Shown here in pieces: positions 12,492 to 36,400 of a DNA stretch of 64,000 nt. Location: contig OZ076409.1 of the NCBI GenBank assembly GCA_964187785.1, positions 51,274,001 through 51,338,000 on the forward strand, read 5' to 3'. Position 1 is the stretch's first letter. Each line of letters starts with the position of its first letter. The notes beneath the pieces are model-generated. The model saw nothing but the letters and a program-made list of their open reading frames with translations. It searched no databases and had not been told where the DNA came from. The DNA comes from Amphiscolops sp. MND2022. Taxonomy: Eukaryota. Both the position numbers and the translations under genes were made by a program.

Positions 12492-15400
12492 TCAGTCCCA
12501 CTTCAAATCATCTCGACGCAATGAACTCTGGAGCTTTTGCATGTTTCTAATTAATTCTGTGCTGGTATCAAACTTTGGCAAGTTTCCGGATGGAGTTCCT
12601 TGAGTTTTATTAAGTTTGGCTGTCCCCGAGTTCCGCTTTATCCTTCGCCTCCATCCTGAATTGGACCCACTTCTTTTGGGCTGTTTTTCTCTCAGCGCAT
12701 CCAAATGAGATTCTATTTTATCAATCTGAACCTGCTTCGCTTCCATTTTCTTCCGTAGAATCATTTGCTCTCGGGATAATTCAACTGCAAGTTGCTGATC
12801 GTCGCATTTTTCTTCTCGTTCTAAAACTATGTCTTCGTACTGGATAGCTAAGTCTTCGAATTCATGGTAAAGATCGTACACAAGTTCTCGCATACTCGAT
12901 TCTGAGTTGAAGTCACACTTCTTAGCACGTCCAGCAGTGGTCACAGCTTGGGATTCCTCGGATGCAACACTGCAACAGCTGTTCGGTCTCGGCGTCGTGT
13001 ATTTTTTGTTTTTCTTCTTTTGTTTTGATGGTACCTTGAACAAATAACCATTTGGGAGACAATGGCTATAAGTTTCAACTTAGGCGTTTCAAATCCGATG
13101 ATGTGGACACTTTTACAGTACTACTTAACTACTGGACCAGCAAACGGAAACGCATCTAAGTTAGTGCAAAGGGTCCCCCCTTTCATTTACTACCTTTTTT
13201 ACGTGATACAAAACCGAACGAGACTATAGGGTCCCCCCTTTGAATTTTTTCATCACTGTGCGACCTTTCAAACTTTTTGTCGCCAAATGGTCCCCCCTTC
13301 AAATTTATATATTTCAAGTGATATTTTGCAGCAAACTGAAGTTTCAAAAAGCCCAAAGGGTTCCCCCTTTTAAGTTTTTCGGCACTATGAGACTTTCAAA
13401 ATTATCATTTTCCTTTTTCGAAAATTTCTTAATGTCTCCAAAAGGTCCCCCCTTGATATTTTGCAACAAATTGGATTTTCGAAAGGCCGAAAAGACTCCC
13501 TTTTCTTTTTACAAACTTTGCGCTTTTTGAGTCTTAAATATAGCGCCGACTTTAGACGTTCCGGCGGCCTGAATTTTTATAATGACAAGAAATGGCAAGC
13601 ATGAAGTCGATATGTGGATTACTTAAAGTTAATTCGACTTGAGGAAAATATGAGGGCAAAACAAAACAAAACCCATCATAAGTAAGTTGACTCGCACCTT
13701 TTTGCCAGAAGGTGGCTTCATATTATTCACCAATGTTCCGGTTACATTGGCACTTTGACAAGCAGATGAGTGCATCTTGAGAGCGGCAAGAACTCTTTGT
13801 AAGTTCACATTCACAGAATGGCTCTGATTGACCGACGTTCCGCACACGAAAGGTAGCTCAGAAAACTTCGCATGGTAATGTGCACAATTCACATGGCTTG
13901 CTTTGGCTACAGATATACTACGATCCAGACTTTTGCTTCTCGGTTGGCTCTTTCTTGGGTCCTTTTTATCAGGTTGAAAAGAGACGTGGCGGTTTTTTGA
14001 ATTGAGATCGGAATCGTCTCGGTACGTTTTACTCGTATTTCCGTTCTGACTTTTTTCTACTTTCGCAGACGATGTAGAGTCTCGCCTGGCGGATCCATCT
14101 CGTTTTGATTTGCCTCTTTCTGAAGGAGGCCTTGAAGAACTTCGTTGTGTAGCCGAAGCGTGGTTGGACTTATTACTAGAGGTTCGAACATCGGATCCAT
14201 TTTTCGCAGGCTTTTTATTAACCTCTTCGGAGAACTTCTTGTGCTCGTCGACAAGTTTCTGCATGGAATTCAACTGGATCTCGAGATTAGCACATCGATC
14301 TTCAGCTTGCCGAAACTGCATCTCCACAGCCTAAAAAAGTTTCGTTACTTTCTGAAGGTATTCCATTTCAATGTTTTCCCGTGATAATCTTGCATGATTT
14401 TGATATGGAGCTCACGGACGAGCTCCAACAAAGGTGATATGAAAACAAAATCATGCGTGATGTTTTGAATGGTCACAAAAACGCATGGCTGCACATATGC
14501 AACCAATGAAGGATTACTCACTTTATTTCAGGTATCTGTAAGACAAAATACATAGTTAAGGCATTTCCTCAAACATTCTCAATTTAAAAAATATATATGA
14601 CTGGAGTAATGACATTTGATAAGGAATACCAATTCAAAGGATGACGGCGCAATATTGCTTCTAACGATAGAACGTTACAACAAGCTCACCAAACCTAAAG
14701 CTTTTCAGAATTGCTATGATGCATGATCGCTTCGAAAAGTGGGCAATATACAATCAACAGCATGGTCAAAACTACCTCAGTACTGTTTTGCAGATCAGTA
14801 AACGACTTCTCCACGTCAATATCTGTCACTATCTCCCGGTCCTCCGCGCCATTTCTTGTCCCAATTTCATTATCGATATGATCATCTTCCTCAGAGAACG
14901 TTTCAAGAGGAGGCACAGTTATTGCAGTTCCAGAGGTCGGGTCAACTCGGTTACCGTTTCCAGTGACATTTCTACCCAACGTAGCATTCGACATTCCGAC
15001 TTTCGCAGTTGAAAAGCTGTAAGACTTGGCAGACTGAGGAAGGTCTTGCTCAGCGATAACTTTGCGCATGGGCAGTTCAATGTGCTGAGTTGAGCTTCCA
15101 AAGGGGTCACGATCAACCGTGAATGTTCTTCCTGTAGTATTGTAACCGTTCAATCTCCCAGGCGAACCCGTTTGACCGAAACTGCTTCGGCCATAACTTG
15201 ATATGAGAGTTGGCATTCATCAGATCAACGTTTCAGCTTTAAAGAGTGTGAAAAACGTGAAACTTACGAACGCCACATAATCTACACAACACTACTTCAG
15301 TCAAAATCTAATGTTCCATCAATTGTGGAGGAAAATCAGACAATTTTCAAAATATCGGAGCATAAATTATTCAATTATCCATAGTGCTCAAAGCCGTGAC

Positions 15401-18400
15401 TCCGTTTTTAGTCTGCACTTTTCCTTTAAGGAAAAAATGCCCGACTATAGCAGTGACCGTTTTTAGTCGGCGCTTTTCCATTAAGGGAAAAATGCCTGAC
15501 TATAGCAGTGACTGTTTTTAGTCGGCGCCTTTTCCTTAAGGAAAAAAGCCCGACTATTACAGTGGGTAGTTTTTAGTCGGCGCCTTTTCCCTTAAGGAAA
15601 AAAGCCCGACTCTTACAGTGAGTAGTTTTTTTTTGTTTTTTTTTCAGTTGACAATCTCACTCTGAGTGGTCCACTTTTCTTACAATTTTTGTTCATCTTT
15701 CATATTTGTTCATCTTCCATCTTCGACCCAGCCGGAGAGCGTGGGTTCGATTCTCGCAATAAACCATAAATTTTTTAATGCTTCCAAAAGTACAGGTGAG
15801 ACCAAAGGGTCCCCCTTTGGGTTTTTTTCGGCACTATGCGACTTTTTTCGAAAATTTTCGAAATTTATCAAAGGGTACCCCCTTAAATTTTTTTGAAGTT
15901 TTCGGTTTGTAGAAAACGTTGAATGAGCCTGAATGGCCTCTTTTTGAGTTTTTCGGCATTGTGCGACCTAAAAAATACTTTTTTCCGAAAAAAAATCAAA
16001 AAATTTTTTTGAAAAAAATAAAATTTTTCCAATAGTTGTTCCTTGAATATTTTTGAGCCTAAGATATGGCGCCGACTTGGGACGTTCCCGTCTTGTTTTT
16101 CTTTTTCAGCCTACAATGTCACTCTGAATGGTCCACTTTTCTTACAATCTTTGTTCAACTAATTTTCTGAGAAGCCGGAGATCGTGGGTTCGATTCTCGC
16201 ACTAAACCACAAATTTTTTATGCTTCCAAAAGTAGATGCGAGACCAAAGGTTTTCTTTCGTTTGATTTTTTTCGTTTTTTTCGGCACTATGCGACTTTTT
16301 TTTGAAAATTTTCGGATTCTATCAAAGGGTAACCCCTTGCATTTTTTTTAAGTTTTCGGTTTGTAAAAACGTTTAATGAGCCTGAATGGCCTCTTTTTGA
16401 GTTTTTCGGCATTGTACGACTTTCTAAAAAAATTTCTTTGAAAAAAAATTCAAAAAAATTTTTTGAAGAAAATTTTTCCAAATGTTTCCAATAGTTGTTC
16501 TTTGAATATTTTTGAGCCTTAGATATGGCGCCGACTTGAGACGATCCCGTCTTGTTTTTCTTCAGACTGCAATCCTCACACTGATCGGTCCACTTTTTAG
16601 AAACAATCCTGAAACCACCTAAGGCGCCCAGTCCGACAAAGGAGCCAAGGCAAACTTAGTGCAAAGGGTCCCCCCTTTCATTTTTCACTTTTTCAAGGTA
16701 ATCTACAAAACCGAACGGGACTAAAGAGTCCCCCCTTTCGAATTTTTTTCGGCACTGTGCGACTTTTTTTCGAATTTTTTTTGTCTCCAAAGGGTCCCCC
16801 CTTCCATTTCTTACTTTTTAAACGTAAACCTACAAAACCGGACGAGACTAAAAGGTCCCCCTTTTGATTTATTTCCGGCACTGTGTGACTTTTTTTCGAA
16901 AATTTTTTATGTCCCCAAAGGGTCCCCCTTTGAGTTTTTTGTTATTTTGCCACAGAATGCATGTTTATAAATCAAAAAGGGTCCCTGTTTTACATTTTTC
17001 GGCACTGTGCGACATTTTCCGAAAGAAAAAAATTTTCAAAAATTTCAAGTTTTGTTCTTGTTCAAAATTGTGTATGGTAAGCAAAATGTGTATATGGTAA
17101 GCAAAAGCTAGTATAAATGCCCTGTAAACCTCTCACCTTTATAGTAGTCATCGTACTGTGTAAGACGGGCCTAACCCAGCCTGCTCTGGACGGTGTCTGC
17201 TGGTTTCTCTGATGCTGGGTAGCCTTTCGTTCGAAGATCGTACAGTGCTGTACAATCTTTATTTTTGGGTTGAAAGGTTATTAGTAGTTGGATTTATTAC
17301 CGGACCGTGCTAAACACGGGGGGGGGGGGTTTGAAATTTTGCAAAATTTTAGGCAACTTTGTACAGTTGTATATGTATTTCTCTTCGCGTGACAAAAGTC
17401 GAACTGACCACTCTCATTTACGCGTGACAAAGTTCGAAAATGATTAACTTTCAGTTGCGCGTGACAAACTTCGAAAATGGTTAACTTTCAGTTGCGCGTG
17501 ACAAACTTCGAAAATGGTTAACTTTCAGTTGCGCGTGACAATCTTCGAAAATGATTGCGTGACAAAATTCGAAAATGATTAACTTTCAGTTGCGCGTGAC
17601 AAACTTCGAAAATGATTAACTTTCAGTTGCGCGTGACAAACTTCGATAGCGACCAATCTCCCATCTCCGCGTGACAAACTTCGAAAATGATTAACTTTCA
17701 GTTGCGCGTGACAAACTTCGATAGCGACCAATCTCCCATCTCCGCGTGACAAACTTCGAAAATTAGCTTAAATCAACGAACGCCTGCTTTTATTCAAAAC
17801 TTTCAAACAATATTAAAAATATGATTGTAAAAAGAAACCACTCGTTTTTATCTGGAACTTTAATTTGTTTCTCCAGAATTGTAAACAATCTGCAAAATGA
17901 ATGTTGCATATGATTTTGAAGCGGATTTTCACAACCATTCTTACCGGTTGTTTTGCTGATCAAAATGAAAGTATTTCCATTTGTTCCATACAACGCTTAT
18001 TTCTTTCGTTCAAAACCAGGTATCAGGATCTACTGTGATACATGTAAGAGTGTCTAGGAATTGTTAGTTTTGTAACCTAAGAGTGTAACTGTTAGTTCTT
18101 GACAGAAAGTAGAACAAATATTACGTCATCTCTTGCAGTTTCCTGCACAACACCTTGCAACAATTTTGCATGATCAAGCAGTAGTGAGTAAACAGCCCTG
18201 GTTACCAGCTAGTGAGTAGAGAACCTCATCAATTTGTGTTCAGTTTATGAATTCTAATTATGAGCGATGATTTCAAAGAAATATCAAATTTGTTGCATAA
18301 AATTTTTGAATTCATTCTTTAGAGGACTTCAATTCATTAATTCTGAATTTTGAATTTTTGGTTTAGCTGGTGGAATTGAATTTCCTCGGATTGAAAAATT

Positions 18401-21400
18401 TAAACACTTGCTGGAGATCAATTGCTAGTCTACTAGAAAAGCAATATTGTATATTGAATATTCAGAAATCATTGCTCATTTCTCCAGCTTTCATCTTAAC
18501 AATGTGTTCACGAGAAACCTTCACTGCCTTCAGAGGTGAGCTAGATTTTTTATCGGTCTTGAACGATAGATTTCACGAGAACATGAATGTAGCTTCAAAA
18601 GGACCAATTTAAAAACAATTTTTGTTCTGCGAAAGATGTGTGATGTGTGCCAAAGCTAGAATGAAACGTGCTGTGCAACCATTGATAAAAGTAATTGAAT
18701 AAACGTCCTTTTTATACTTTTTTCTTGGGAAAGTTTCAATCGTTTCCTGAAATAACTTCTGCGCTGCTAAATTGAAATTTTCTTCAGCGAACCGACAAAG
18801 CACATCGGAAGAACATCCGAAAATTGAACTTTTGAAGGAAATTCCGATGAAGAAAACTGAACACGATAAAAAAGTTCGTTGGAAATACTACGTCGCTGTC
18901 GGAACAGTTGGTGGAAAAATTGGGCTGGGGGTACGGTGCGGGAAAAACAAAGAGAAAACTTTCAAACTTGCAGTTGCGAATGCGAAAAAAGGAATGATCC
19001 GGATTCCAAAATCACATTATCGAGAGGATGATTCTGGGAATAAACATACTCTTCCACGGTCTGTGACCGGAAAATATGGGAAACTTAGAGCCAGCGCAGA
19101 TCCTGCTCCCCGTGGTACTGGAATTGCTCATCCATTAGCCCGGGTTTTCTTCAATCTAGCCGGGATTGAGGACTGCCTTTTGAAAATAAACTCAGATAGC
19201 GCGCCATTAGGCTCAATTGCTATGCTGTTGTTCTTTACATTGAAAACTTTGAAGCTGAATAAAAATGAAACCATATAATTTCTCTTTATACATTGGCTGC
19301 TGGAAATTGAAGCAATTCGTTTTGTGCCTTTTTGATTTCAACTGAATGAGGAATTGAGATGAGTAAAGAGCTAGCCTTGAGAATTGTAAGTCTGCGAAAG
19401 AGTCACCAACCCAACGGTGTTTGCAAGTAAACAGAACGGTATTATAGTGCATCCTGATGTTGGATCCTGCTGAAACCTTTTTGGTGGAATTGAGGATCCT
19501 AACACGGCAATGCGTGAACCCTAGTACGTTTCTTGCAAAACTTTCAAAGACGGACAGGTTGTAAGCAAGGAAATTTAGGACATTTAGAACATAATCTGGA
19601 ACACCTACTGTGACGCTCCTACCAATGAATTTCACCGATAACGAGCAAATGTGAAAGAAAAAGACATTTTGTATAGAATAAAACTGTGCGTAGGATTATG
19701 GAAAGATGTGGGCGTAGAATGAGTAGAACATTCCCCGAAACATTTCTGAAAATCATAGGGCTAGATTTCTAAACTTGTGAATGTTGCTTGAATAACATAG
19801 TACTGGGATGGACTGAATAAATGGTATAGAAATGAATAGTTTCGTTTAGGACTCTTCTCTATAGCCATGTATATCTGATGATAGCCTATTCAGGTCTATA
19901 GTATGCTACTGTATATTGAAAGATAGATCAAAAATACGTCCTATATAGCCATGTATAACGGATGATAGCCTATTCAGGTCTATAGTATGCTACTATATAT
20001 TGAAAGATAGATCAAAAATACGTCCTATATAGCCATGCATATCGGATGATAGCCTATTCAGGTCTATAGTATGCTACTGTATATTGAAAGATAGATCAAA
20101 TATACGTCCTATATAGCCATGCATATCGGATGATAGCCTATTCAGGTCTATAGTATGCTACTGTTTTTTGAAAGATAGATCAAATATACGTCCTATATAG
20201 CCATGCATATCGGATGATAGCCTATTCTGGTCTATAGTATGCTACTGTATATTGAAAGATAGATCAAATATACGTCCTATATTGCCATGCATATCGAATA
20301 ATAACCTATTCAGGTCTATAGTATGGTACTGTATATTGAAAGATAGATCAAATATACGTCCTATATAGCCATGCATATCGGATGATAGCCTATTCAGGTC
20401 TATAGTATGGTACTGTATATTGAAAGATAGATCAAAAATACGTCCTATATAGCCATGTATATCGGATGAGAGCCATTTTAGACCTATAGTATGGTACTGT
20501 ATATTGAAAGATAGATCGAATATGAGTCCTATACGACCGTGTATATCAGATGATAACCATTTTGAACCTATAGTATGGTACTGTATATTGAAAGATAGAT
20601 CGAATATGAGTCCCATACGACCGTGTATATCCAGTCTTAGCCATTTTAGACCTATAGTATGGTAGTGTATAATGAATGATAGATCAAAAATAAGTCCTAT
20701 AGGACAGTGTTCATCGAATCTTAGCTACATCAGACCTATAGTATGGTACTGTATATTAAAAGATAGATCAAATATACGTCATATACGACGGTGTACATCC
20801 AGTGCTAGTCGTTTTAGACCTATAGTATGGTACTGTATATTGAAAGATTGATCAGTAATACGTTCCATAGAACCGTTCATGTGATGTCTTACTACGCTTT
20901 TATTAGCTATCGCGCCGGCCAATAAAGTGGGAGCGAAACAAGACTGAATTCACAAAGTTATTGAACCACTCAAAACACTTGAAACTTTCTTCAACAAGTA
21001 CTTGAGAACAAAGAGTAAAACAATGATTACAGCACTATTTGTTTGAAGCTATCAGCATTTGCAATAACATAAGCTAAAGTTTTATTCGCTCTCACTGTCG
21101 CTCACAATTTCCATACGCCTTCTTTTTGCTCTTTTGATGCGGTTCACAAATTCATCATCACTGAACCAATTGTCAAAATCGATTAGGTATTCCAAGTCTT
21201 CGATGGCGTTTGCCTCATCTTCCGTTAGTGTCTCAACAATCACACAGTCATTTGGGTCTGATTCATCCTCTTCTTCTCCTTCGAGCTGGCCATCTGCATC
21301 GGAAACTTCGGTTGCCTCGTCGTCGATGAATGGGTTTCTGGGAGGGCTCTGCTCTTCTCGAGTTTCGTCCAAGTTTGTTTCGCCTTCCAGCTCGGAATCA

Positions 21401-24400
21401 CTGTACTCTCTTTGATGCATTCCCGGATCAGGTGGTGACCATGCTTCCATCAATTCTTGAGTGAGTGAGATTGACTCATCTTCAGGTAGTCGCAATGGTG
21501 ACGGAACACGGGCATTCCCCGGCATCGGAGCATCATCTGGAAAGACTTGGGAGATTGTGTTTTGGGGATCGATACCATTTAGTTCATCCCAAGTGGGACT
21601 TGTTGGCATTTCTTCATCTTCATTTCCCCATTCTGGTTCATCCAAAATGTCTTGCTCAACATGAACATCCCTGATCATGTAGTGACCATGGGGTAAGGTT
21701 GAGATGCCGTCTTCTAATACAAAGCGCTTATCATCAAAGGAGCTCAGTGACAGCTTGTTGGTCTTGATAGTTTGTAATTGATGTCGGGTTGATCCGATCC
21801 GCGTGTTTAAGGTCTTGAAAGAATCACCCGTCTGCAGAATTGTTTTGAAAAGCTCATGTGTTAGCTTTCGTTGAGCGAATCTGGTGACGCCCTTCGCTGA
21901 TAACTTTTGCTTCCCGCCTGCCAAGATGGAATACATTTTTGGCTTGAGGCCTACAAATTCTTCGATAGGTGTTCCTCCTAGCTCATCTTTGAACTTGAGA
22001 GTCACCATTTTGTTGTCGGCGTTGTAGAGTTTATGATCTGTGGGGTAATTTGACAAGTCAAAATATTGACGCAACTCTGCATTTCGGGCAAGTTCATCAT
22101 AGAAATCTGTATGTTTCACTTCGTATAGCAATGAGTCTGTGTCCGAGTACAACACAAAGCAATTGAGATGTTTCTTCATCACGTTGTAATGGAAATCAAA
22201 CATGATGTATTTTGCCAAGTCTAGTACAGCAGCCCCAACTATTGTGGGTTTGTTCCACGTGATGGATCTTTTTCTAGAAGATATAGCTGCTAGATTTTCG
22301 TGGAAAATCTTGAACTCATTGAAAAAGGGGGTGTCTGTCCTCCTCAATAGAGCTTCGCTGTTGGCGATAAGGTGTACACTCACGCGGTTGCGTTTACTCT
22401 CCAGAGTTTTACCGTAGCAAGAATTGTTCATGAGTTTGAAGAAACTCTCTTCGAACTTGTTTCGAGATTCTTTTCTCTTTGCGGTATTTAGCTCCATATA
22501 TGGTTTCAACCATTTTGTTTGTTTGAACTTCAACACTCGATGTACTTTCTTCACTTCCATGCCAAGGCTAACGTAGAGCTTCAGTGTTATATAATGGACA
22601 GTATAGTTCTTTTTGTCAGACAGTGATTGGATCAGCTTTTTACCTTGACTAAAAGGTCTAGTTTCACCCATCTTTTCCAACAACTCTTGTTGACTTTCTC
22701 CCAGACTTTTGTAGTAGATTCTTTCTTTGGTTGGAGCCAGTGGAAAATCTTCATGTCCATCATGAAGCTTATCGGGGTAATGAAGGTCCACTTCTAGAAG
22801 GTATCCTTCTTCAGAGTCGTTAGATGTTTCCAATATTTTGCTCAGATTAATGTTTTGAACTGTTTCAAAGCTGTTCAATGGCAGTGGCAGTTTTTCCATG
22901 ACACCGCCATACAAGTTGTTTGCGTCGAGTAATACACCATAAGTGTCATATTCTCCGGTGTTGTGGTCATCTAGGTATCTGTTGTTTGCCTTGAAAAGTC
23001 TCTTGTCAAACACTGAAGATACACCTCCTCTAATCATATTTTCAACCATTTCCAGGTGGGAGCGATCAGTTAAAAGTTCAATGTCTGCCCGACATATTTT
23101 CAAGAAAGCATCGCCAGATAAGTGGGAGCAAGTAAAATAGTGTGCACTGTCCAAGCCATAGGTCTTATAACAGAGGCTACGAAATTCTTCAACCACGCAT
23201 GCCAAGAGTAGAGTGTCAGTTAAAAGGTACAAATTGTGGTAATCACCCAAGTTTTCGCATTGGAACTGCTCGTAAACCTTTTCTGCGTGTTGCCATTGAG
23301 CCTCAGTAATCATAACTTCTCCATTGCGCAGCGAATCTTTCCATTGTTCTCTCGGTGGTAGCTTCTCTTCTTGAAACTTTTCAAAGTTGTCAAAGTAGGA
23401 GTATGGATAATAGCCCTTTTGATGTAAGAGGTTTCGTTCTTCTTTAGAATAATCAGGAAAGACTTTGTCAAGTATTTCAAACTTATCTTCCGGCAAGTAT
23501 GAAACTAACTTTTCCAGCGAAGCACCCATGAATCGGTATGAGTCTATAAATCGCAGATACTCGAATACCGTCTTTGTCACCCCATTTTTATCTTGGTATG
23601 TTCTAACAGGCACTCCGATTGACAAAGTTATGTATTTTTCATCTGTTGACGGTATTACATCAAGTTTGCAACCTGGTTTGAACTTGTGGATATACATACA
23701 AACATGATGCAAGTCATAGTTTGACGAGTTGTGAGCTATGACTGGAATGAAGTTTGTTGTTTTCCTGTTGATATTACATTCTGGGTGTGCGAAACCGAGA
23801 AACTTTCCCGAGTAGTGACAATGGTCGATGACTTTGTCGTCTTCTATGTCTCTATTCAACCCAAACTGACCTTCGCAGATCCAACAAAATTGTGCTTCTT
23901 GAGGTCTTTCTGGTAGTGCATCAGAAAAGTAACGATGGTTTTGCTTTCTTGTATTCATTTCGTGAGCAATTTTCTCAAGTGCTTCAATGAATTTTTCCAT
24001 GCAGTTTTCAGAACGTTCAAGCTGCATGAAAATTGGGGTAGGGTTACCATGTTCAATACCAACAAAGCAGAAACCGCTAGGTTTGTGTAGTTCACTGATG
24101 CTTGTTGATTCATTTTCTTTTTGGCAGCCGGCAAGTGGCTGAAGGATTGATTCGAGATCAAAGTAGATAACCACCGGGGCAAACCATCTCGCACCCAAGT
24201 TTTTAAATTTCAACCGGTTTTTTTCTGGCGGAGGCTTTTTCACAACTGCGGGCTTGTGATGCAGGCAACTAACTTGGTGACGTTTGTAAACCATTTCATC
24301 AGTGCAGATGTGAAAACAGTTTCTGCAGAGTACTCTCTGAAACAACGATGTTGTTCCTTTGATCAAGTTGACGAGTCTCAAAAGGTCCAGTATCAGAACG

Positions 24401-27400
24401 TAGTGATACTCCTGTCCATCATCCACTAACAATAAATCAACATTGAAAGTGTTGTCTTCACGGGAAACTCTCAGTGGAACTAGTTCGTTTTCAGTATAAC
24501 GGAAAACGTTAACGTTGCACTTGTTCAGTTTTTCAAATCGTAACATTTGTCCAAAGCCCATGGGCATTTCATAGTCACCCACTGCTTGATGGGCTAATTG
24601 ATTTCGTGACGAGTAGGTTTCAGGGCTCGTTCGTCTCCCAATTGAATCCCGGCTAGCCACATAGAGTAGAGGTCCATGTTTCAGGTGCCACGCAGCTGTA
24701 AAGCAGTACAAAAAGCAATTGTGATCTTGTCGGTTGCGAATGTTGAGCAGTAAATGCGGTGCCTCCAGTTCTGGTGGAGTAGGAAGGTAGGAGGATCCCC
24801 GAATTGGGTTGAAGGTGGCAAATTTAATGTCTAGCTCAGTTATTTTATCCAGTATCCACCCACTTCCGGAAGCAGTGAACGTAAACAAAGTGTTGATCAT
24901 TTTATCCACTGCTGCCAGGAAATCATCTTGCGGCAGGGTATTGCCGTAAACAGGTACCATGTGTGATCGAAGAAAAAGTTCAGTTTCTTCTCCCTTTGTC
25001 GGCTTTGAAAGCTCTGTTCTCAAAACGAGATGCATTTTCTGACTTGTGTGGTTTACATTTTCGCTAACCAGTTGATCAATTTGTGGTTTGACATCATTCA
25101 TGAACTGCATCAAGTCGTTTTCTCCTGATCCAATAATTTTGAATACTTTGAGAGCCCCATTGAAAGCGGATGAGATTGGTTTCGTTTTCTCCTTGATAGA
25201 ATCGATAGGTGGTGGTAGATCATGTTTCTCTAACAAGTGTTTGAAGAATTTTTGGGCGTCATCGAATGCGACTCCACAATACACGCACATCTTTTGTAAC
25301 TGGGTTCCGTGTTTCGCGCGAAAGTGTTGATCAGATAGGGCGACGGATAGTTCCATCTTGTGGCAAACATCGCATTCCATGGGAAAGAGATAAGCAGGAA
25401 TTTTGTGAACATTTCGTCGATGTTGGCGAAGATTGTTTTTGTTGGGAAATGTTTTCTGGCACTTGTCGCAGGTTCTCATTTTGACTAAAATATTTGATTG
25501 AAACTACTATATCAGATGAATTTGTTGCCGAAACATTATCTTGTTGTATGAGAAATGAAAATTTTTTACAAAAAGACTGGACAAATTCACTCTGAAATAC
25601 TATTTTCAATCAAATATTGCAGGTGATATTTGGTGATTTTCAACAAGATTTGCTTGTGAGGGTAACTGATTTGCAACAAAGTTGGAGATTTTTAATTTTA
25701 TTTTTGAGAAATTTCGTTTTAAATTTGAGCTATCGGGGGTTATTCGGGTTCGACGACAGACGCAAGCTGACGCACCCCACTTAGACAATCGCCGTTTAAT
25801 CTTGTTTCGACCGGTTTAAAAAAAGTAAGCTGACGCACCCCCTCTCAGACAACCGGCGGTTAATCTCGTTTGAACCGGCAAAACAAATGCAACCTGACGC
25901 ACCCCCTCCCAGACAATCGGCGGTTGATTTCGTTTGAACCGGCAAAATAACAAAGCGCAACTGTTGAAACACAACCCCTCCAGATACGCTACGCAGTAAA
26001 AGTTCCCCTAGAAAGTGGGTGGTTGTTTAATTTTCTCAGCACTCGATCGTAAAAATGCAAGCTGTTGCTCGCCGCCGCCGGACTTGTCTGGCCGCAGGCC
26101 AAAATCATTTGCTTCTTACCTGATTTTAAAAACAGCTTCATCTCTTTCAACCTCAACTTTCATTGCAATTTGCTTCTCAACAACAAACATCTAGCTCGTG
26201 TATATCTTAAACAATTTCCTGACCCTGACGGTCGTCGAAAAAAAAAATGTGTGAACTAACAGTATGGCCAATTAAATCTTGTCTCCGAATGGACGACGAG
26301 CTCGTCTCAAACTATGGACCTCCGCTGAGAAAGTCAGTAACTTTCAACGACATAGTTGAAACATTTGGAGATGTCGTCGCTCTGGAACCGTCTCCCGCAA
26401 CCTCAACAAGCTACCGAATCACCTTCAATGGACGAAATTCAACACCTTTCGAACTGCCAGCATCCCAACCGCAACGGAAACGACCCGTCAACCCGCAGCG
26501 AAAAAATCTGCGTGTGAGTTTCTCCCCCTTCTACTTGACGATTGAGCCATGTGGTAGGACTTACACATCCGTCACAGCTCTAGAGGAGGAGAGTGAGTAC
26601 TGGAAGCCCGGAGCTTTGGACGGCGAGCCATTTTATAAAATGAACTGCCAGAACTTGATTTGTTTTTGAACTTGTGTCTTGTTATTTGATCACTATTTTG
26701 AAATTGTCATTCAATTTTGTTCTTTTTGGTATTGTCATTCGATCCATCTTTTATCATCTGAATCCAATTAATTCTTCTTTGTTTTCTTTTTGAAAAATAG
26801 GCTTGAAGTAAGAAACATTAATTAGAAAAGATAACATTAAATGAAATGTTTTACAAATCGCATTAGTTCTTGTTCACTAATGTAAGGAATAATAGGAAAA
26901 TGAGCACCAAATACATAATGAGCTATATAAATGCAATAAAGTCCACACAAGTTTGAGTTTAAGTTTTGCAGAGGAGCTTGTATAATCTCTGTCACTCCCA
27001 AATCTGCAAAAGATAGTCGATCACGAACATGAGGGTAATTAGTGAGTGGAAGGCCAAGCGGGTCAGCGAATAAGTACTTGTTGTTTCTGTTGCAAAGCAA
27101 AAGCCAGTGTGTTCCCATTTGAGTAGCTTTGTCTGAATTGACAATGATAAAGTTGTCATTCCTTAAATTGAGGGGAAAATTATCTGCTGCATAAACACCT
27201 GCGAATTTGTACTTCAAGTGTTTACACTTGTTGATGAGAGTGCCCAACTGTAGTTCGTCAATCATTTTCTTGTTATTGCGGTATCGGGAGCAATGTAGTA
27301 GTTCTTTGAGACTTTTCTGCTGTTATTAATGTATATTGTTGAAGCGGTTTCTCCCAATAAAAGTACTTCTGTAATTTGTGCCAAGGCCGTATCGAACCGC

Positions 27401-30400
27401 AAACTGATTGAGATTGATGCACTTGTAAGTTCAGGATGTAAATAATCATGCGATGCTTGATGAGTACTGGTTAGATCGAAAACTAACAGATAATGATTTG
27501 CATATTCCTCGAATGAAATTCCATGACCATGCTCGTGAAACGCTAGAGCTCCCATTGAATTCAGATACATCTTTTTGTCGGTGTCCGTCTCTAAGGGTGT
27601 TCCAGCAATTGGATGACCATTACGATAGCCTGTTATGCTGCGCAAACCAAATTTTTGATAGTGGAATGGGTTCGTTGTTTTGGCTCCCACAAAGCCAGCA
27701 TTGGTTGACATGGCAAGTATAAATCGTCGAATTGGTTGACCGCTAAAGACATTTTCTTGATCCCAACTCTGTGAGTTTTGCCCGATGAGAAAAGTCCTTG
27801 GAATAATCTCAGTGTACCGATATCGAGCAGTAGCTTTCGCTAAAGTTGTTTCAATTGCGGAATAGGCATTCTCAGTAAGAGTCATTTTGCGAACGTACAA
27901 ATTGGCTTGAGTTATATTAACTTTATAGTCTTTGCCTGCGTCGTCATAAATCAAGCAAAATTCGGGTCTCGTTCGAAGGAAGGATATTCTCAGCTCAACT
28001 CCACTGACAAGATGTTTTTCGCACGAGAAAAAATCTGAGGCAACTCGTCCAATGAATGTTACAGTGGCTGAAGATCTTGTTTCAGCTTCTCTCTTTGTGA
28101 AAGCTCCCAAGGTGTGTGTACTAGGGTTGGATTCGTAGTTACAACCCTGACATTCCAGCCAAGTATTTTTTGCTTCCAGGTTGTGGGAAAATTCAGTTTC
28201 AATAAAGGCTTTGTGGGCGTAGAGTCCATTTGCAGAAGAGACTTTTACTCCTTGGGCCGTTACAGTGCAATCCGAGAATAATGAATGAAGTGTATTGTTG
28301 ACAAAAACTGGCGTGTCTTGTTGAGTTGCGTCTCCAGTCACATAATTTAAATTGGTGTTGTCTGTTTTTACAATTTTACACTTGACTTCCAAATAAATGT
28401 TTTGTAAATCGATAAAGTTGGTCCGGTCTCCCTTGACTTCAAACTCCAACGTTGGTCCATTTGGAGCATACAGCGGGCCAATTTTTTGCTCAAAAGACCC
28501 GTCAAAGTTGACTAGAAGCTGAGGCCTTTCGAAAATATCGAGTGAAGTGTGCGAGGTTTCGATTGGTAAAGCGTTACTGTTAATCAACATTTTTGACTCT
28601 AGAGAAAAAATCTGACCGACTTCTTCGTGTGAATTTTTTACGTCGAATGAATCGTTTGCCTCTTCTCCTTCTTTTAGATCCACCCAATTGTTTCTTTACA
28701 GTTTTGCGGACTGCTGATCGAACCGCTTGTTTTGGTGTCTTCTTTTTTGATGCCACTTCAAGCAACTCGGGTATGCTTTGTGATAAGAATTCTTTGCCAA
28801 TTGACTTGACAGCGGGAAGCAAAAACTTTTTGGCAAATGGTAAAGCTACTCGTCCAACACCAGCTGCTAATGACCTGAAACCACTTCCACGTTGTCTTGC
28901 AGGCCCTGAGAAATGGGGTAGTTGTGCCTGTTGGGCGTAGTATTGTTCCATTTATTGAAATTTCCTAAATTTGAGTGTGAGAGCTACTAGACCGGTACCA
29001 ACGAAAGGAACTTTTTGTCCAGTAATGGACATCAACTCAATTTGAATTTCTTCAATTGTACTAGTAATGAGCTTCTTGAACTGTAGCTCAGTGAAAACTC
29101 TATGGGCTGTTGTTGAAGTGTTTAAAAGTTTTCCGTCTTGAACTTGTTTTGTGTTTTCGATAATTCGCAAAAGAGGCGACTTTACTCCAGCAACATGTTG
29201 ATGTTCAATGATGTTGGTATTGACGAAAAACATGTTGGTTCCCACTGTGAGATCTGGTGGATAAGTGTTTTTGATTGGTTGTTTCATATTTGCGACTTTG
29301 TAGTTCGTTCCTATGTAATATCCTCCTCGATTTGTATCTGGCACCCCCTGGATACCCAAAACATCAAAGAGGCTGCGATCTCTGACACTTATTCCATATC
29401 GGCTTTTAAAACTAATTTCAATGTTATCTTCCACATAATCTGCAGAGTTTAATGGCTTTTTGGTTTCAGTTGCCTTGTCTAGTTGCTTCAGAATGCTGCT
29501 GATTGTCTGATACTCTCCAGCTTCAAATTTAGCATTATCTGACCAATCCTCTCGTTTGATAACTGCACCGCCTTCACTACTCGGGACAGGAGTGTTGTCA
29601 GATGGTGTTTTGGGTGTGTAAATGAAAAAGTCAGTTGTAGTAATGTTTTTGATGCTGGTAGGGAAAATGATTTCGGCAAGCGCTACCCGCCAGTCACCTT
29701 CCAAATGAATTGGGTGCGCCAAGAGGTTACGAAACGCTGCCATTGTGTTGCCGCTGTATATATTCATGGAACCTGCTGATTCCAGGTAAATGTCAAATTC
29801 GTCCATTGACCTTCACAAGTTCGGGTTCGTAAAATTTTCCGTTGATTGTATCACCACTCTCGTCTCTCAAATTGTATGTTGGAGGGTTGAACGTTGAAAT
29901 TTTTATTATTGGGAATATTTCGTCCGTGAAACTTTGTTTATATCCCTTTTTGAAGGGTAAATCTTGTTTGGCTATCCGAACTTTATCGCGGAGATTAAAC
30001 TTTGGTTTTTTGACAAATTTGCTCGACTGCTCTGCAGCTAGAGATCGTAAATGTGGCTCGTGCTTCTTTGTAACATTGTTTGGGGCCAACTTTGTAACAC
30101 GATTGACGCGTGAGTTGATTGTGTTGACAAATTGAGATAGCTTGCTGATGTAATGATATGTCCATTTGTTTTCCATGTGTTTGTACATGATATTTTTGAG
30201 TGAACGAATGTTTCTCTCTGCAAAAGCTGACTTTGTTTCGCTGGCAGTTGTATATGTTGCTATTCCTCTCTGATCGCAAAGATTTTTGAATGCTCCTTTG
30301 AATTCGGTTCCTTTGTCTGACCAAACTTTCTGCGGTTGCACTTTCTCAATCATCTTTTCGAATGCTTTAGCAGCGTCAGGAGCACTTTTTGATCGCATTG

Positions 30401-33400
30401 GTACAACACGTAAAAATCTTGATAACACATCCACTGCAACCAGTAAATACTTGACTCCATTGTTATATTTTGCCAACTTGTCCACATAGGCGACATCTAT
30501 TGACCAAATTTCGTTAATTTCGTAAGCAATTACTTTAAGGCGAGGGAATTTTCGTTGAATTTGTCTGTATTTTGTATGAGCATCTTTTTGTTGCAAAAAA
30601 GTGTCAATTTTTGCTTTTGGCATTTTGCTGGTTTCTTGCAAATTTTTCGCGCTCCCGTAAGCAGCAGGTCCACTCGTGTACATTTTTTCCAACTTTGCTT
30701 GTTCAGTTGTTGAAAGTCTCCCAATCCTTCGAGCCATCTTCTTGGTCTTCAAAACTTGGGCCAGGTTGCTGGTCATCTTTCTTGCGGGGTCTCTTTGGTG
30801 TCTTTCCGTTGCTTTTTGTCTTTGGTGTTGTGACAAACTTGGTCTTGACAACTTTTGGTTTTACAATCTCTTTAGCTTCCGAGTTTGGTACTAGATCTGG
30901 TGAAATTTTAATTTTGTCTAAAATTCGTTTGTAATCTGGGTGATAAAGTTTCTTTGTTGGTTGCTGCAACGTGAAAAGGAAATTTGACGCATCAATGGCT
31001 GTGGGAGTTTTGTCAATCTCAATAAGACCTTCGTCGTTTATCGAAACGTCAGAACTACTTTGCAATTCTTTCAAAATGGACTTGGATTTTTCAGTTTGAT
31101 GAGGATTGAGCATTGTGATTGAGCGAAGTACCCTCTTCTGGATATCTTCCCGTGTCTCTGGGGCTTTCACTTCTTGAGATGTTTTTTCCTTCTCGGGCTC
31201 CTTTTTTTCGGGAACTCGCTGTAATAACGTAAGTTGTTGACTTTTTGCTGTAATTGTTGGATCGTCCAGAATTTCGGACGCTTTTGGTTGATTCTTGATG
31301 TAATTTTCTTTTGGTATTAGTATAAATTCTTGAGCACTCATTCTGCTGATAAATAGCAAATGCAGGGACGACTGATCAGCTTCAATAGTTTATAGCCTTT
31401 GATGGATGACAAAATTTGTCGTCGTCTGCTGTCAGATGTTTGCGGTTGACATAAAATTTTTAATTGCTGTTCAAATGGGATCAATTTGTTTACATTCATT
31501 GGTATGTTTCCATTGATGATATTCAAGGCGCACTCACAGAGCAATTTGACTTGTTCCCTGTTGCAATCATGTATAACGCGAGAAATGTCTTTCCTCTTTT
31601 TGTTTTCTTGCCAGTGCTTCAGTATATGCAATTTTTTCTCGCTCATTTGTTAGAAGTGTTTCCTTTGCAGTTGATGATGGAATATAAAAGGTAGTCGGTT
31701 GAGGAGCAACAATATTCGAGCAAAAACGTAAGACGTCACTCGTTTTCGGATCGAAATCAATAAGTAAATGTCCGAATGGCCTCGTGGTGGCCCTCTGATA
31801 AGCTTCTCGAATAAAATCCAATTGTTTCAATTGTCTGCCGAAATGGTCAATTTGCTGTAAGTCTCGCGGTGATTTGAATAAAATAACATGTGTTGTGTTT
31901 AAATCAATTGTACGCGACCATTTGCTTTGATGGAATAAGTTGTGTTTGACGAAAATGCAATGGAGTTTCCTATGTCTACCGGCAACTGCAAGTTTGACAA
32001 ACGCTTGTTCTTGGTAAATCTCCTCACATGAATCGTCGAAAACTAACAAACAGTTTTCCAAGTTTTTGATCATTTCAAAGTCCAAGCATGGAATAAATTC
32101 AATGTTTAATCTTTCAGACATTTCTTGGAAAAGCGGTTGATATTCCTTGTAAAAGTAAAAAGTTTTTTCGATGGGTGGATAAAATGTTGTAGGCGAGGCA
32201 AGCATCGAATAAATGAGACGAGTTTTACCCGAGCCCCCAGGACCAACCAGAGCCATGAATAAACGATCATTAGTGAAAATGATCTTGTTCATAGTTTAGG
32301 ATTAGGTAGAATGTAACCAACTGCTCCAAATAATAGTGAAAACCACACTGACATTTCTTCGCACGGCGGTCTGTCTAGAGTAAGTTTCAACAAACTAGCA
32401 ATTACAAGAATGAAAATTAGTGTTGCCTGAGTAAAAAAGACAACCTCTGATCTTGGTAAAGTGATTGAATTGCAAAACTTCCACAATGACCTTACGCTTT
32501 CTTCTTCGTTTGATTCCATACTGCCTATGCCATCATCTTCATCGATAACTACCTCAGTCATACTTGAAAATTTTCTTGATTGTGAAAAATGAATTGATAT
32601 CAAACACGACTATTATGTAGCAGTATAAAATATGAAAATGTTAAATTCATCACTAGACTTGAGTTTTATTCGAAACTCGCCCTTGACTTTTGTTTGTGCT
32701 GGTGGAAAGTAGACAACCTCCAACACATCGTTGCGCTTGGCCAATTCCTCTGCAATTTGTCTTGGTACCTTTGGATCCTCGATGCCGTCAAGTTTGATGG
32801 GACGTGAATACTTTGGTGGTAGCTTGAGCGGTTTGATATTGTGGGCCTCCATCAGATGCTGTAGTCGTTTGCTTCGCATTTTGGTTTACAAACGTAATGA
32901 AACTGTCAATGGTTTCGAAACTAGTCTTCAATTGCGAATACTCGGATGCAGTTAACTGTATAACACCCTTTCTCAAAAGTTTGTGACTGCCAACCTGCTT
33001 GAATTCATCTTTGACTAATTTTATTTTGGCTTCAGCGTCACGTGTTACCTCCAAGGTTGTTGTAACTGAGAGGCTCAAATTCGGGGATAGGGATAGCTGT
33101 ATGTTGTGCTCTTTGGCTGTTGCATCGACTGCATTCATGATGGGAATTTTGAAAGTAATTGAACAACCAGTTGTAGAATAATGCCACTTTTTCTCGAGCA
33201 CAGTGATTCAGTTTGTAAGACTTTTGATGATTCGGACAAACTTTTGTTGAACAATAGCTAAACTGAGATGCTTTGGGGCAACCAAGAGTGTCCAAGTCGA
33301 CCACACTGAAGAAGAAATTTCTCAAGAAAGTGCACTTCTCGGTACCTTTTGAAAAAACGGTACTGTTTGGAAATCTAAGTTTGAGCGCGTTGAAGAAATT

Positions 33401-36400
33401 GAAAATGAATGTGTGATCGTAATTCCCAGCTTCCCAAACAATGCCGTGTAGGTTGTCTGTTAACCAGGCGTAAGTCTTTTTATTTTCTTCTGCTAGTAGA
33501 GAAAATTTCACCGGCGGTTGCAAAAGAATAGTGTCTTGATAGTTGGCTCCTCTAACAGAAATCTCTTTGGGTATAAATTGTTGAGATTTGTGACGGAAAC
33601 CTTCAAAGTCTATAACTAAGAAATCAGAATTTATCATTTGAGCGAGTGATCAGCGAGAAGTTTTATGGCAGAATGATTGATTCTTCAATGGTCTGATACA
33701 ATTTGATGGCAACCAATAAAAATTAATACTGTCGCATTTGCATGAATGCTGAAAAGAGATATTTGAGGATAATCAAGACAACCAGCAATTGGAGCAAGCT
33801 GTTGTTGTCATAATAAAGGCAAAATGCTTCCTGTTTCTTCTCTGTGTTCAAAACTGAAGGTAATTTGACTAGAGTAGTTTCGATGTTTGAAGAATTCCAG
33901 AAACGGTCCAGGATAAGAAGTGTCATTGTCAACTATTTTTTCCGAAACGGTTAATACAAAATGAAGTTAACATTTGAGGTAACTGAATTCATCAGCAAAT
34001 GATTGTTTGAATTTCAAAGCCAATAGGAAACATTGGATTCTGCTTAGATGATGATAGCTGTGAAGACAATCTTCGATAGCGCGACCTGCCCAGACTCGTT
34101 CATAATTTTCAGCAATCAACCGAGTAGATTCGTGGATAACCGTGGCTAGCCTGTATACTTTTGACTTTTTGTAGACTTGGTTGATCCGTGGTATGATAAT
34201 TTTTGGTTGGAGGTGATTAATCTTGCCTGAAGGTGCCATTTCGTGACATAATGCCAAAACGTAGTTCCGAAAAATTAATCTTTCATCTTTTGTATAAATT
34301 TTTGCTGAAAGTGAGCGTTGTTCTTCGAGTCTTTTCAAATGTTCAATTGAACATTTGATGTAAACATTTTCCACGTGCATTTTCAGGTATACCATAAAAA
34401 CTTTTCACACCTTTTTCCACCATAAAGTTCCGGACATTCACACGCGACTGTTTGTTGCTCTTCTAGGTAATAGCAGTAACCACCATTCATGCAATAACCT
34501 GTAAATTCTTCTGAACAAGAGTCTGTATTGTTCCCACTGTTATTGGTCGTTTCGTTTTGAGAATTAGTAATTAATAATATTGGAGTTGTAAGAATTGCAA
34601 CAATAAACGTGAAGGTCAAAAGTACTACCCAAATCAATTGAGTCCCGCTCATATTATTACTATAGGGTCAACCGTCTCAGATAACTTTTACGAAAAGAAT
34701 GAATGATTGTTATATATGGAACCTTTTTGTACTAGTTGAGAAGGTCTCGTGGCAGAGTGGATAGATACTCTGATTTTCATCCCTGAGGTCCCCGGTTCGA
34801 ATCCGGGACTTGACAAAATTTTTGTAAAATTTCAAACCCCCCCGTGTTTAGCACGGTCCGGTAATAAATCCAACTACTGTTATTTTCTGAGAACCCAGTA
34901 GATACCTGCTTGCTCAAATAACTTCCCAAAAGCTGGCCATTAGAGCAACGATTCTCAAGTCATTTCAAGTTTCTGTGTTTCAAAAATTTATCGGAAAATA
35001 GATCGAAACGTTTTGAACAAAAAACATACAATAGTTGCCACGCCTGCAATTTTTATTTTGAGTTAACCAGGCTCTCATTACGTGGGCTTCGGCCTTAAAG
35101 AGTTTGTTCCATTTCACGATGTGCCTTGGATACGGTTGTTGAATAATGAGTTTTCTACTTTGATTTAATATGTGATATGTTATTTTCATCGTGGAATGGA
35201 TAAATTCAATTATTATTATTAAAATATAGTTTTCAATCAAAGATGGCTCTCACTATTGAATTAACGACAACACACGTAGCACAGCTTTTGCTATTGAAAT
35301 TTCCCAAAATCTGGTGTATTAGAGAGTTAAAATACTTCTATCGATAAATTGATTTTTAACAAGACGAGAACGTCTAAAGTCGGCGCCATATCTAAGGCTC
35401 AAAAAGCGCAAAACATTTTTTTGAAAAAAAATTTCTTTCAAAAAAGTCGCATAGTGCCAAAAAATGTAGAAGGGGGGACCCTTTGGGATTGATTAACATA
35501 CATTCAGTTGCAAAATATGAGAAAACTCGAAGGGGGGACCCTTTTGAGACATTAAAAATTTTTTCGAAAAAGTCTCACCGAGCCGAAAATACTCTAAGGA
35601 GGGCGTACCCTTTGGTCCCTTTGAGTTTCTAAGATGATGTAAAAATACTACTTCGCAAGTATTTTAAATTTGCCAAGTCAGAATTGTAAGATTTGTAAGA
35701 ATTGTAAGAAAAGTGGACCGATCAGTGTGAGGATTGTAGTCTGAAGAAAAAAAAGGTCACTGCTATAGTCGGGCATTTTTCCTTAAAAGGAAAACGCGCC
35801 GACTAAAAAACGCTCGGTTTATTCTAGGGCGACTATCAAATAATTCAGGTATTTCAAACAGTGATTTGACCACTCAGCGTAACTCAGCTATCGCTACCGA
35901 TAATGATTACAAGCGATAACTAGCTGTAGTTTAATAAATTGAACAGCTAAACTTTTCATTCCATTTTCTAGCTTAAATATTTTTCTGGTGGTCCCCAAAA
36001 AATAGAAAGCGGTTCCTTAATGTCAGAATATTGAGAAATCCTCTTTGATAGCGGTGTTCAAAATTAAGAAGTTACTGCATGAGTTTTTTGTTTATCTTCT
36101 GAATGCCAGAAATGAACAAAGCAATAATTGTTTCAGGAAAAAGGACTTCGCGAAAAAAAATGAAGGCAACAGCGGTAGCAAGCGATAGCGTTAAACTTGA
36201 GTAGCGATCAAATAATTGATGTGAAAACAACTGAACATCAGGACCAAATGTTTGATATTTCAAGTTGTCAAGAAATTGATCAATTTTTGTTTTGGAATTT
36301 AGCATTTGCCAACCCTGTAGAACACAAAGATCCAGATCTACTTCCGCTAGTCAAAACCGGGTAGTTAGTGGTTGATCTGGAAACCATATTTGGGTTGTAG

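Follow-up and report, generated by a model that had tools for sequence, protein, structure and literature searches.

A Polinton/Maverick of Amphiscolops sp. with an exchangeable RPS2-derived cassette and other host-like accessory genes in separate slots

Do the host-like genes carried by one mobile virus act together, or are they separate acquisitions that share a vehicle? The question is raised by a stretch of 64,000 nucleotides from Amphiscolops sp. MND2022 (contig OZ076409.1, positions 51,274,001 to 51,338,000; termed here the window, to which feature coordinates refer), which contains a 17.6-kb Polinton/Maverick element with open core genes at 17283-34878. The initial annotation reported four accessory items inside its terminal inverted repeats (TIRs), namely a uS5-like protein, a protein with an RVxF motif, a tRNA-like RNA polymerase III (Pol III) RNA and an epidermal growth factor (EGF)-like ligand, and read them as a toolkit converging on host translation and growth. 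The co-location holds, all four lying between the TIRs at 17283-17324 and 34837-34878; the coherence of the four as one translation module is not supported. Our preferred reading, to which we give a probability of about one half, is that of an intact Polinton whose accessory items occupy different slots and probably act independently of one another, and whose RPS2-derived uS5-like gene likely has a non-ribosomal role, as an RNA-binding protein or decoy.

The two TIRs are 42 nt each with 100% complementarity; the left one (plus strand) shows an AGTAGT end and a G-run, and the right one is read on the minus strand. The 6-bp target-site duplication GTTATT flanks the element on both sides (17277-17282 and 34879-34884). 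TIRs with AGT-repeat ends and a 6-bp target duplication are those of the Polinton/Maverick class. Among core products, the integrase (PF00665) and ATPase (PF04665) passed the Pfam cut-offs and the protease (PF00770, E 0.0026) fell below, and a Pfam scan of the open reading frames (ORFs) of the element gave no match to a PolB or capsid family. Polinton/Mavericks (adintoviruses), as described in the accessible part of the source, are similar in their length of about 17 kb, AGTAGT ends, TIRs and 6-bp duplication, in an intronless polymerase and a capsid gene (both putative in the element), in integrase, ATPase and protease genes, in flanking accessory regions, and in purifying selection on their morphogenesis genes (PMC8097293).

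A search of the 1.07-Gb assembly with the capsid gene gave 1846 candidates, including 95 matches at 97-100% identity; the genome thus holds at least 95 close copies. Stretches of 20 kb were fetched around 60 of the 95 (the self match, small contigs, several identical copies and the last ten were skipped), giving, with the window, 61 copies. Both TIRs were found in 47 of the 61, and 41 of these 47 have a perfect target duplication and are called bounded copies here. Some pairs of copies at different sites are more than 99% identical over most of their length, which indicates recent mobility. All four items are present in 36 of the 41 bounded copies, three lacking the uS5-like gene and two the right-end box as detected by pattern search. 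Intact frames occur in 41 of the 41 for the RVxF and EGF proteins, 38 for capsid, 35 for integrase, 33 for the uS5-like gene and 16 for the protein-primed DNA polymerase B (pPolB). The pairwise ratio of nonsynonymous to synonymous divergence (dN/dS), for pairs with synonymous differences per site (pS) between 0.01 and 0.5, was 0.06 for capsid and ATPase, 0.11 for pPolB, 0.25 for EGF, 0.31 for RVxF and 0.44 for the uS5-like gene, for which 16 of 1128 pairs qualified. The items are thus retained together and selected inside this family, as the initial annotation had proposed to check by collecting family members, and EGF, RVxF and uS5-like genes are under purifying selection; the neutral evolution that the initial annotation would have counted against the toolkit was not seen in them. 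TIRs, target duplication, core genes and co-retention together bear out the description of the element as a Polinton with host-derived accessory genes, and the constraint on capsid genes (0.06) fits a virus life cycle. The only named relatives of the capsid come from an acoel worm (54% identity); capsid patterns gave no match in IMG/VR, and a phage collection gave two weak matches at 31% in unannotated records.

The comparison with other families decides against a single module. Ten copies with capsid identity of 64-68% were read. The uS5-like, RVxF and EGF genes occur together in both copies of one family (L253-256, capsid 67%); in a second (L243-248) EGF is present in three of three and the uS5-like gene in two of three, the left end of the third lying outside the fetched stretch; a third (L249-252) carries EGF alone in both copies, each with full TIRs; and none of the items was found in the three copies of a fourth (L257-262). 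EGF is thus the most widely shared accessory item. No outward B box was found at the 12 located ends of L243-248, L249-252 and L257-262. Since cargo varies by family (uS5-like plus RVxF plus EGF, uS5-like plus EGF, EGF only, or none) and the items occupy three separate slots in the element, they are not one coherent translation toolkit. A metagenome scan with the capsid ORF returned 14 loci, mostly short and with only L284 (16 kb) near full length, and gave no uS5, EGF or SILK plus RVxF match among them. The slot between pPolB and protease, which holds the RVxF gene in the window, holds three other conserved ORFs in L243-L252 and L257-L262 (about 200-230, 113-131 and 193-208 aa), with no Pfam match.

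The uS5-like gene is an open frame of 175 aa at 18751-19278 (+), containing an ATG-initiated ORF of 143 aa (18847-19278) that exceeds the cut-offs of both PF00333 and PF03719. Of 30 uS5-like sequences, all have PF00333 and 26 have PF03719, and a PF00333 search of the genome gave 347 candidates, two of which are the host RPS2 genes. The best PDB matches of the protein are uS5 of the 40S subunit, and its predicted model (mean confidence, pLDDT, of 89) superposes on 40S uS5 with a root-mean-square deviation of about 2 A; no BFVD viral structure matched the model at E<=0.001. Longer types also retain RPS2-type N-terminal helices. By domains and modelled structure, the gene is a derivative of eukaryotic RPS2 that has kept the fold. 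In the RPS2 tree one branch (SH-aLRT support 89) separates the element copies from the other sequences, and a grouping of them with host RPS2 is not rejected by the approximately unbiased test (p-AU 0.30), the branches being long; the trees thus allow a single capture of RPS2, with the donor not fixed. Element copies run without an intron through the position at which host RPS2 has one.

The features of a working ribosomal protein (surface residues, tail and high identity) were not found in the uS5-like proteins. They share 25-43% identity with host RPS2, whereas the median among 115 cellular RPS2 proteins is 75%. Where cellular RPS2 does not vary, the uS5-like proteins keep small structural residues in 53% of cases, lysine or arginine in 35% and other polar residues in 23%. 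The QKQT hairpin loop, which we take to face the mRNA channel, is retained in 0-19% and RRGYWG in 0-13% of uS5-like representatives. Basic residues matching host positions 83, 98 and 186 persist in 87-97% of them, and the isoelectric point (pI) is basic, at 9-11, in 30 of 31. The FxxGFG motif and the RG tail, which serve chaperoning and methylation, are gone in 31 of 31; in cellular uS5 they are used by PDCD2 and PRMT3, and residues of uS5 lie near mRNA positions 8-13, according to the available text of PMC10216425. The S5 domains and fold agree with the uS5 label of the initial annotation; its placement of the protein at the 40S entry channel is not supported, the hairpin loop and most invariant surface residues, which a subunit built into the 40S should retain, being lost.

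In the window the uS5-like ATG falls within the domain. The open frame reaches back to 18751, with a site resembling a splice acceptor shortly upstream, and the start may be determined by splicing or trans-splicing. TTTCAG sites of this kind occur at 18778-18788 and upstream of or inside many uS5-like frames. The host has two near-identical RPS2 genes (L231 and L232; G000:C5), with an intron after about codon 200. Chance insertion of host RPS2 pseudogenes was considered and rejected, as the uS5-like gene has the same slot and orientation in 53 of the 61 copies and is under purifying selection.

The diversity of the uS5-like gene is out of proportion to that of the element. The piece is present in 55 of the 61 copies and falls into 32 types at 80% identity, and pairs of copies have a median identity of 28% in this gene and of 98% in the capsid. 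Clustering of the 76 distinct unbroken uS5-like domains from all fetched loci at 80, 60 and 40% identity gives 39, 20 and 9 groups, respectively, and the types are 18-35% identical to one another. No part of the uS5-like alignment is conserved to the degree that a scan for loci requires. This diversity belongs to a left arm of 3.6 kb (17325-20900) that differs between copies whose capsids are 98-99% identical. From the TIR to about 20900 the arm is unalignable in most copies, and everything to its right aligns; for the part at 18083-19682, a blastn alignment was obtained in 0-4% of the 60 other copies. Thirteen copies that agree in TIR type and in polymerase type have nine uS5-like types between them. 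The lack of alignment and these nine types on one background indicate that the arm is swapped as a cassette. It carries its own repeats and a promoter-like piece, and no second conserved gene was found in it among the copies. In three copies (L146:7986-8324(-), L152 and L160) an unrelated ORF of 113 aa without a Pfam family occupies the uS5-like slot. TIR type is linked to polymerase type in 144 of 144 pairs. Separately, the structural block is common at more than 90% between TIR/polymerase types, that is, replication modules are swapped on one capsid block.

The uS5-like lineages, about nine at depth, are old, and some of them also occur in other families and other datasets. The genes of L253-256 are 64-66% identical to one type of the window's family. 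Among the best 150 matches in the 50% library, 34 are nearer to element copies than to host RPS2, and 25 of these 34 element-like proteins are less than 90% identical to any fetched sequence; for P0006, P0301 and P0436 the best matches in this genome reach only 65, 53 and 45%. One uS5-like cluster, P0369, has members on contigs whose two lengths recur among members of a capsid cluster absent here, which points indirectly to the same cargo in another genome. Selection on the gene varied with the pairs compared: dN/dS was 0.39 in 15 pairs of 80-95% identity, 0.69 in 49 near-identical pairs and 0.40 between the window gene and its closest relative, and the corresponding ratio of proportions, pN/pS, was 0.25 in 35 pairs of 65-80% identity, with pS saturated.

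Some uS5-like genes were found away from recognizable elements. Tandem uS5-like left arms, with seven frames in L269-L271 (G000:C7:42165000-42194999) and five in L272-L273 (G000:C6:51318000-51337999), lie in fetched stretches with no core Polinton gene and are possibly amplified or host-kept fragments. The closest uS5-like relative of the window (88% at the amino acid level) is in L267-L268 (G000:C1:20368000-20387999), where it adjoins an 84-bp repeat array of more than 10 kb in a stretch without core genes.

The RVxF protein, of 140 aa, is encoded at 26247-26669 (+). It has a SILK-like motif (KSCLR), an RVxF motif (KSVTF) and a second one (RVSF). The SILK-like motif followed by RVxF within 20 residues was found in 57 of 60 copies and the second RVxF in 58; S11, C12 and L13 as well as K29, V31 and F33 are invariant in an alignment of 22 rows. 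A lone RVxF arose in 3414 of 20000 shuffled sequences and the combination of KSCLR with RVxF in 0 of 20000. On these motifs the protein likely recruits protein phosphatase 1 (PP1). Its proposed control of eIF2-alpha fared less well: the W..RF pattern and LSAVL-like patterns for eIF2-alpha were found in 0 of 58 RVxF proteins, Pfam gave no match to PF10488 (GADD34-type), and a PDB sequence search with the alignment gave no match. Herpes simplex virus (HSV) gamma34.5 and DP71L of African swine fever virus (ASFV) bring PP1 to eIF2-alpha through RVxF, and the motifs of DP71L include KHVRF (PMC10807198, as far as its available text goes); in 20 of 60 copies the element protein has KHVRF as its first RVxF.

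The EGF protein (89 aa, 34383-34652, minus strand) combines a hydrophobic N-terminal segment with an EGF domain of the EGFR-ligand type. It exceeds the cut-off of PF00008, its PDB matches are EGF, epiregulin, amphiregulin and neuregulin, and the spacing CX7CX4-5CX10-13CXCX5GXRC, which we take to be that of EGFR ligands, is kept in 51 of 54 intact copies, all of which confirms its annotation as an EGF-like ligand. A TATA-like motif lies 61-75 nt upstream of the ORF in 52 of 54 copies (about 63 nt in the window).

The tRNA-derived element (34744-34823, +) faces the TIR outward. Its tRNA-like stretch, 34744-34815(+), has an A box (34750-34760) and a B box (34794-34804) at tRNA spacing, followed by a T-run. 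Thus the Pol III type 2 promoter boxes of the proposed RNA are real; its cloverleaf stems are unpaired, and it behaves as a terminal cis-element. The stretch was called neither by ARAGORN at default settings nor by Rfam at E<=1, and was called only at a lowered threshold; it folds no better than shuffled sequences (z -0.90), and in the acceptor register the window copy forms 2 of 7 pairs and others 0-5 of 7. A functional tRNA was ruled out on these grounds. Over 51 distinct sequences, of several unrelated types, the conserved columns are those of the boxes, with no conservation of the acceptor and anticodon stems. At 52 of 54 right ends and 41 of 52 left ends a B box that faces outward stands close inside the end, and in a genome-wide DNA search it was 84-93 nt from the element end in 17 of 20 loci. 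Three of the 11 left ends missed by the B-box pattern have a variant box. Of the remaining eight, six have a GCGTGAC repeat array, which is seen in none of the 41 left ends with a box. The window is one of the six; unlike most copies, it has no tRNA-like element at its left end. The left end of the window has a 37-bp tandem array (GCGTGACAA) at 17386-17763 (+), typical of left ends without the tRNA-like element. The tRNA-like piece resembles heads of short interspersed elements (SINEs) in the flanks. Because only the promoter boxes are kept, and just inside both ends, the piece is likely a DNA signal, and it reads best as a terminal one (a TFIIIC site, a boundary or a homology for end repair) rather than an RNA effector, a VA-like RNA being less probable. 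B boxes can reportedly serve as chromatin boundaries.

According to the preferred reading, the EGF protein would be displayed or secreted and would stimulate the host EGF receptor, driving cells into cycle as poxvirus growth factors do, and the SILK plus RVxF protein would bring host PP1 to a substrate. The tRNA-derived A and B boxes would bind TFIIIC inside each end and, once the copy is integrated, mark it with a boundary or a signal for open chromatin. The uS5-like protein, with its fold and one basic face kept, may bind RNA or a host factor that normally recognizes uS5, acting as an RNA binder or as a decoy against host surveillance, and many old versions may persist through an advantage of rare ones. 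Several points weigh against this account. Pairwise averages gave no sign of positive selection on the uS5-like gene, so old age and relaxed constraint could yield the same diversity without frequency-dependent selection. The suggested RNA-binding or decoy role rests on losses and three basic residues. Copies were chosen by capsid similarity (60 of 95), which favours young and intact ones, and the cargo of other families was read from only ten copies. The tight co-retention (36 of 41, with no broken EGF or RVxF frame among the 41) fits a shared purpose as well, and an atlas lead of 0.75, below the trust level, connects the RVxF protein to a viral PF10488 cluster of the GADD34 type.

A broader version, which we hold only tentatively and consider rather unlikely, is that RPS2 was captured once and became a polymorphic effector, a uS5 mimic in an end cassette swapped between virus families, with its nine or so ancient lineages maintained as the host's surveillance of ribosomes or its defence against RNA evolves in an arms race with the virus, and acting with the PP1 adaptor and the EGF ligand as a compact host-takeover set. 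The original idea of one translation-and-growth module, with the uS5-like protein on the mRNA channel of the 40S subunit, RVxF-directed dephosphorylation of eIF2-alpha, a VA-like Pol III RNA and EGF-driven proliferation, appears doubtful. It draws on the joint presence of the items in 36 of 41 bounded copies, purifying selection on the three proteins, the intact uS5 fold, the weak atlas lead to PF10488, and the precedent of gamma34.5 and DP71L with the DP71L motif KHVRF in 20 of 60 copies (PMC10807198, available part); it is opposed by the variation of cargo between families, by the loss of invariant RPS2 surface residues and loop in types 18-35% identical, by the lack of W..RF or LSAVL-like patterns in the 58 RVxF proteins and of a PF10488 match, and by tRNA-like boxes that lack stems, stand at both ends and are replaced at some left ends by a DNA repeat array. 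That the cassette is an identity tag between competing Polintons, through superinfection exclusion or a toxin-antidote-like incompatibility, seems improbable to us. Deep lineages under purifying selection that are common to families and datasets, the swapping of the whole arm together with the repeats and the promoter-like piece that belong to it, and the unrelated 113-aa ORF in the same slot of three copies would all suit such a tag, but the arm has no second conserved gene as a possible partner, and at least 32 types coexist in one genome, so that integration itself shows no sign of exclusion.

We likewise give little credence to a virus-internal job for the uS5-like protein, on viral RNA, the origin region or the zinc fingers of the polymerase, with a diversity that is old, mostly neutral and kept by recombination among lineages that separated long ago. 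The missing signal of positive selection and the conserved basic pI (9-11 in 30 of 31) agree with it, and C2H2 zinc-finger proteins bind uS5 in cells, as stated in the part of PMC10216425 available, pPolB itself starting with C2H2 fingers. However, families without the uS5-like gene have the same zinc-finger start of the polymerase, nine uS5-like types go with one polymerase type, and the gene is missing in three of 41 bounded copies. Finally, the items might be functionless passengers, captured host fragments copied along, in line with a dN/dS near 0.7 in near-identical uS5-like copies, the position of the window ATG inside the domain and the resemblance of the tRNA-like piece to SINE heads in the flanks. 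This is very improbable, and for the three proteins already largely refuted, since open frames and fold persist across saturated synonymous divergence, the EGF cysteine spacing (51 of 54) and the SILK plus RVxF motifs (57 of 60) are kept, and the boxes have a fixed position.

Compared with known systems, the novelty of the element rests more on the polymorphic RPS2-derived cassette than on the four-part toolkit. Accessory genes reported in Polintons include Oncoid, Bcl2/IAP, gasdermin, PLA2 and venom-like proteins, and the available text of PMC8502044 has no mention of 'ribosom', 'growth factor' or 'phosphatase'. The element differs from known Polintons in its RPS2-derived, EGF and SILK plus RVxF genes, in tRNA-derived boxes at both ends and in the swappable left arm; module mosaicism is already known in the Polinton virus group (10.64898/2026.10.13.758929, available part). 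In literature searches that mostly leave out subscription journals, no Polinton gene for a ribosomal protein, EGF or PP1 adaptor was found reported; the supplementary tables of accessory genes in PMC8502044 and PMC8097293 could hold an S5 or EGF annotation. Other ribosomal proteins encoded by viruses (giant-virus eL40, bS21, bL12 and others in phages, and the antisense eS30 of FBR murine sarcoma virus) are likewise host-derived. The uS5-like gene differs from them in its origin from the core of the small subunit, its 25-43% identity to the host and its dozens of versions. In the text available of PMC11499249, eL40 is named as the first case of a ribosomal protein in a eukaryotic virus; uS5 is unmentioned.

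The RVxF protein resembles gamma34.5 and DP71L (GADD34-like, PF10488) in being short with a conserved RVxF, and differs in adding a SILK-like motif and a second RVxF and in having no PF10488 domain, W..RF or LSAVL-like bridge. Poxvirus growth factors include VGF, MGF and SFGF. The EGF protein shares with them and with cellular EGFR ligands a hydrophobic N-terminus, ligand-type cysteines and G-x-R-C, and differs in being carried by a 17-kb integrating element; its receptor binding is putative. The tRNA-like element shares tRNA-type A and B boxes with adenovirus virus-associated (VA) RNA and with tRNA-gene/TFIIIC boundaries, and shares with the former a lineage of linear protein-primed DNA viruses; it differs in that it has no conserved RNA fold, comes in several unrelated sequence types, points outward at each of the two ends and, in some copies, gives way to a repeat array.

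Hardly any eukaryotic virus is known to have a gene for a ribosomal protein, eL40 having been reported as the first in 2024. An RPS2 derivative that is under selection, preserves the fold and exists in dozens of versions offers a natural series of the possible fates of a ribosomal protein, and asks which host factor reads the uS5 surface. If the polymorphic effector were confirmed, it would be the first core protein of the small subunit repurposed by a eukaryotic virus, and a case of balanced polymorphism like that of the major histocompatibility complex (MHC) in a mobile virus. An EGFR-ligand-like gene and a PP1 adaptor suit an agent that infects and manipulates cells better than a purely germline transposon, and thus bear on the question of active viruses among the Polintons of animals; the exchange of the left arm and the linkage of TIR and polymerase show a mode of Polinton recombination.

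The rest of the element follows the common plan. An 84-bp tandem array (19860-20854, +) lies between the uS5-like gene and the end of pPolB. The 1465-aa ORF at 21082-25479 (-), with N-terminal C2H2 zinc fingers, is presumably pPolB, a label that comes from PolB motifs and gene order, Pfam giving weak zinc-finger matches only. Beyond the RVxF gene follow, all on the minus strand, the adenain-like maturation protease (26837-27265; the PF00770 match below cut-off), a 442-aa ORF (27262-28590) read as the major capsid protein from position, size and the F54H12.2-like name of its relatives in the absence of a Pfam match, and ORFs of 123 aa (basic) and 284 aa (28580-29806) that by position would be the core and minor capsid proteins. 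Next are the retroviral-like integrase (29793-30776; PF00665, E 3e-12), two conserved ORFs of 212 and 102 aa in the morphogenesis block (30703-31646), the A32-like packaging ATPase (31567-32292; PF04665) and six small conserved ORFs of 90, 88, 116, 199, 67 and 142 aa (32289-34395) with no Pfam match above cut-off. Three 64-bp repeats (25762-25956) between the divergent pPolB and RVxF genes mark a likely promoter region, and host-exon-like ORFs flank the element at 13629-15216 (-) and 36280-36654 (-).

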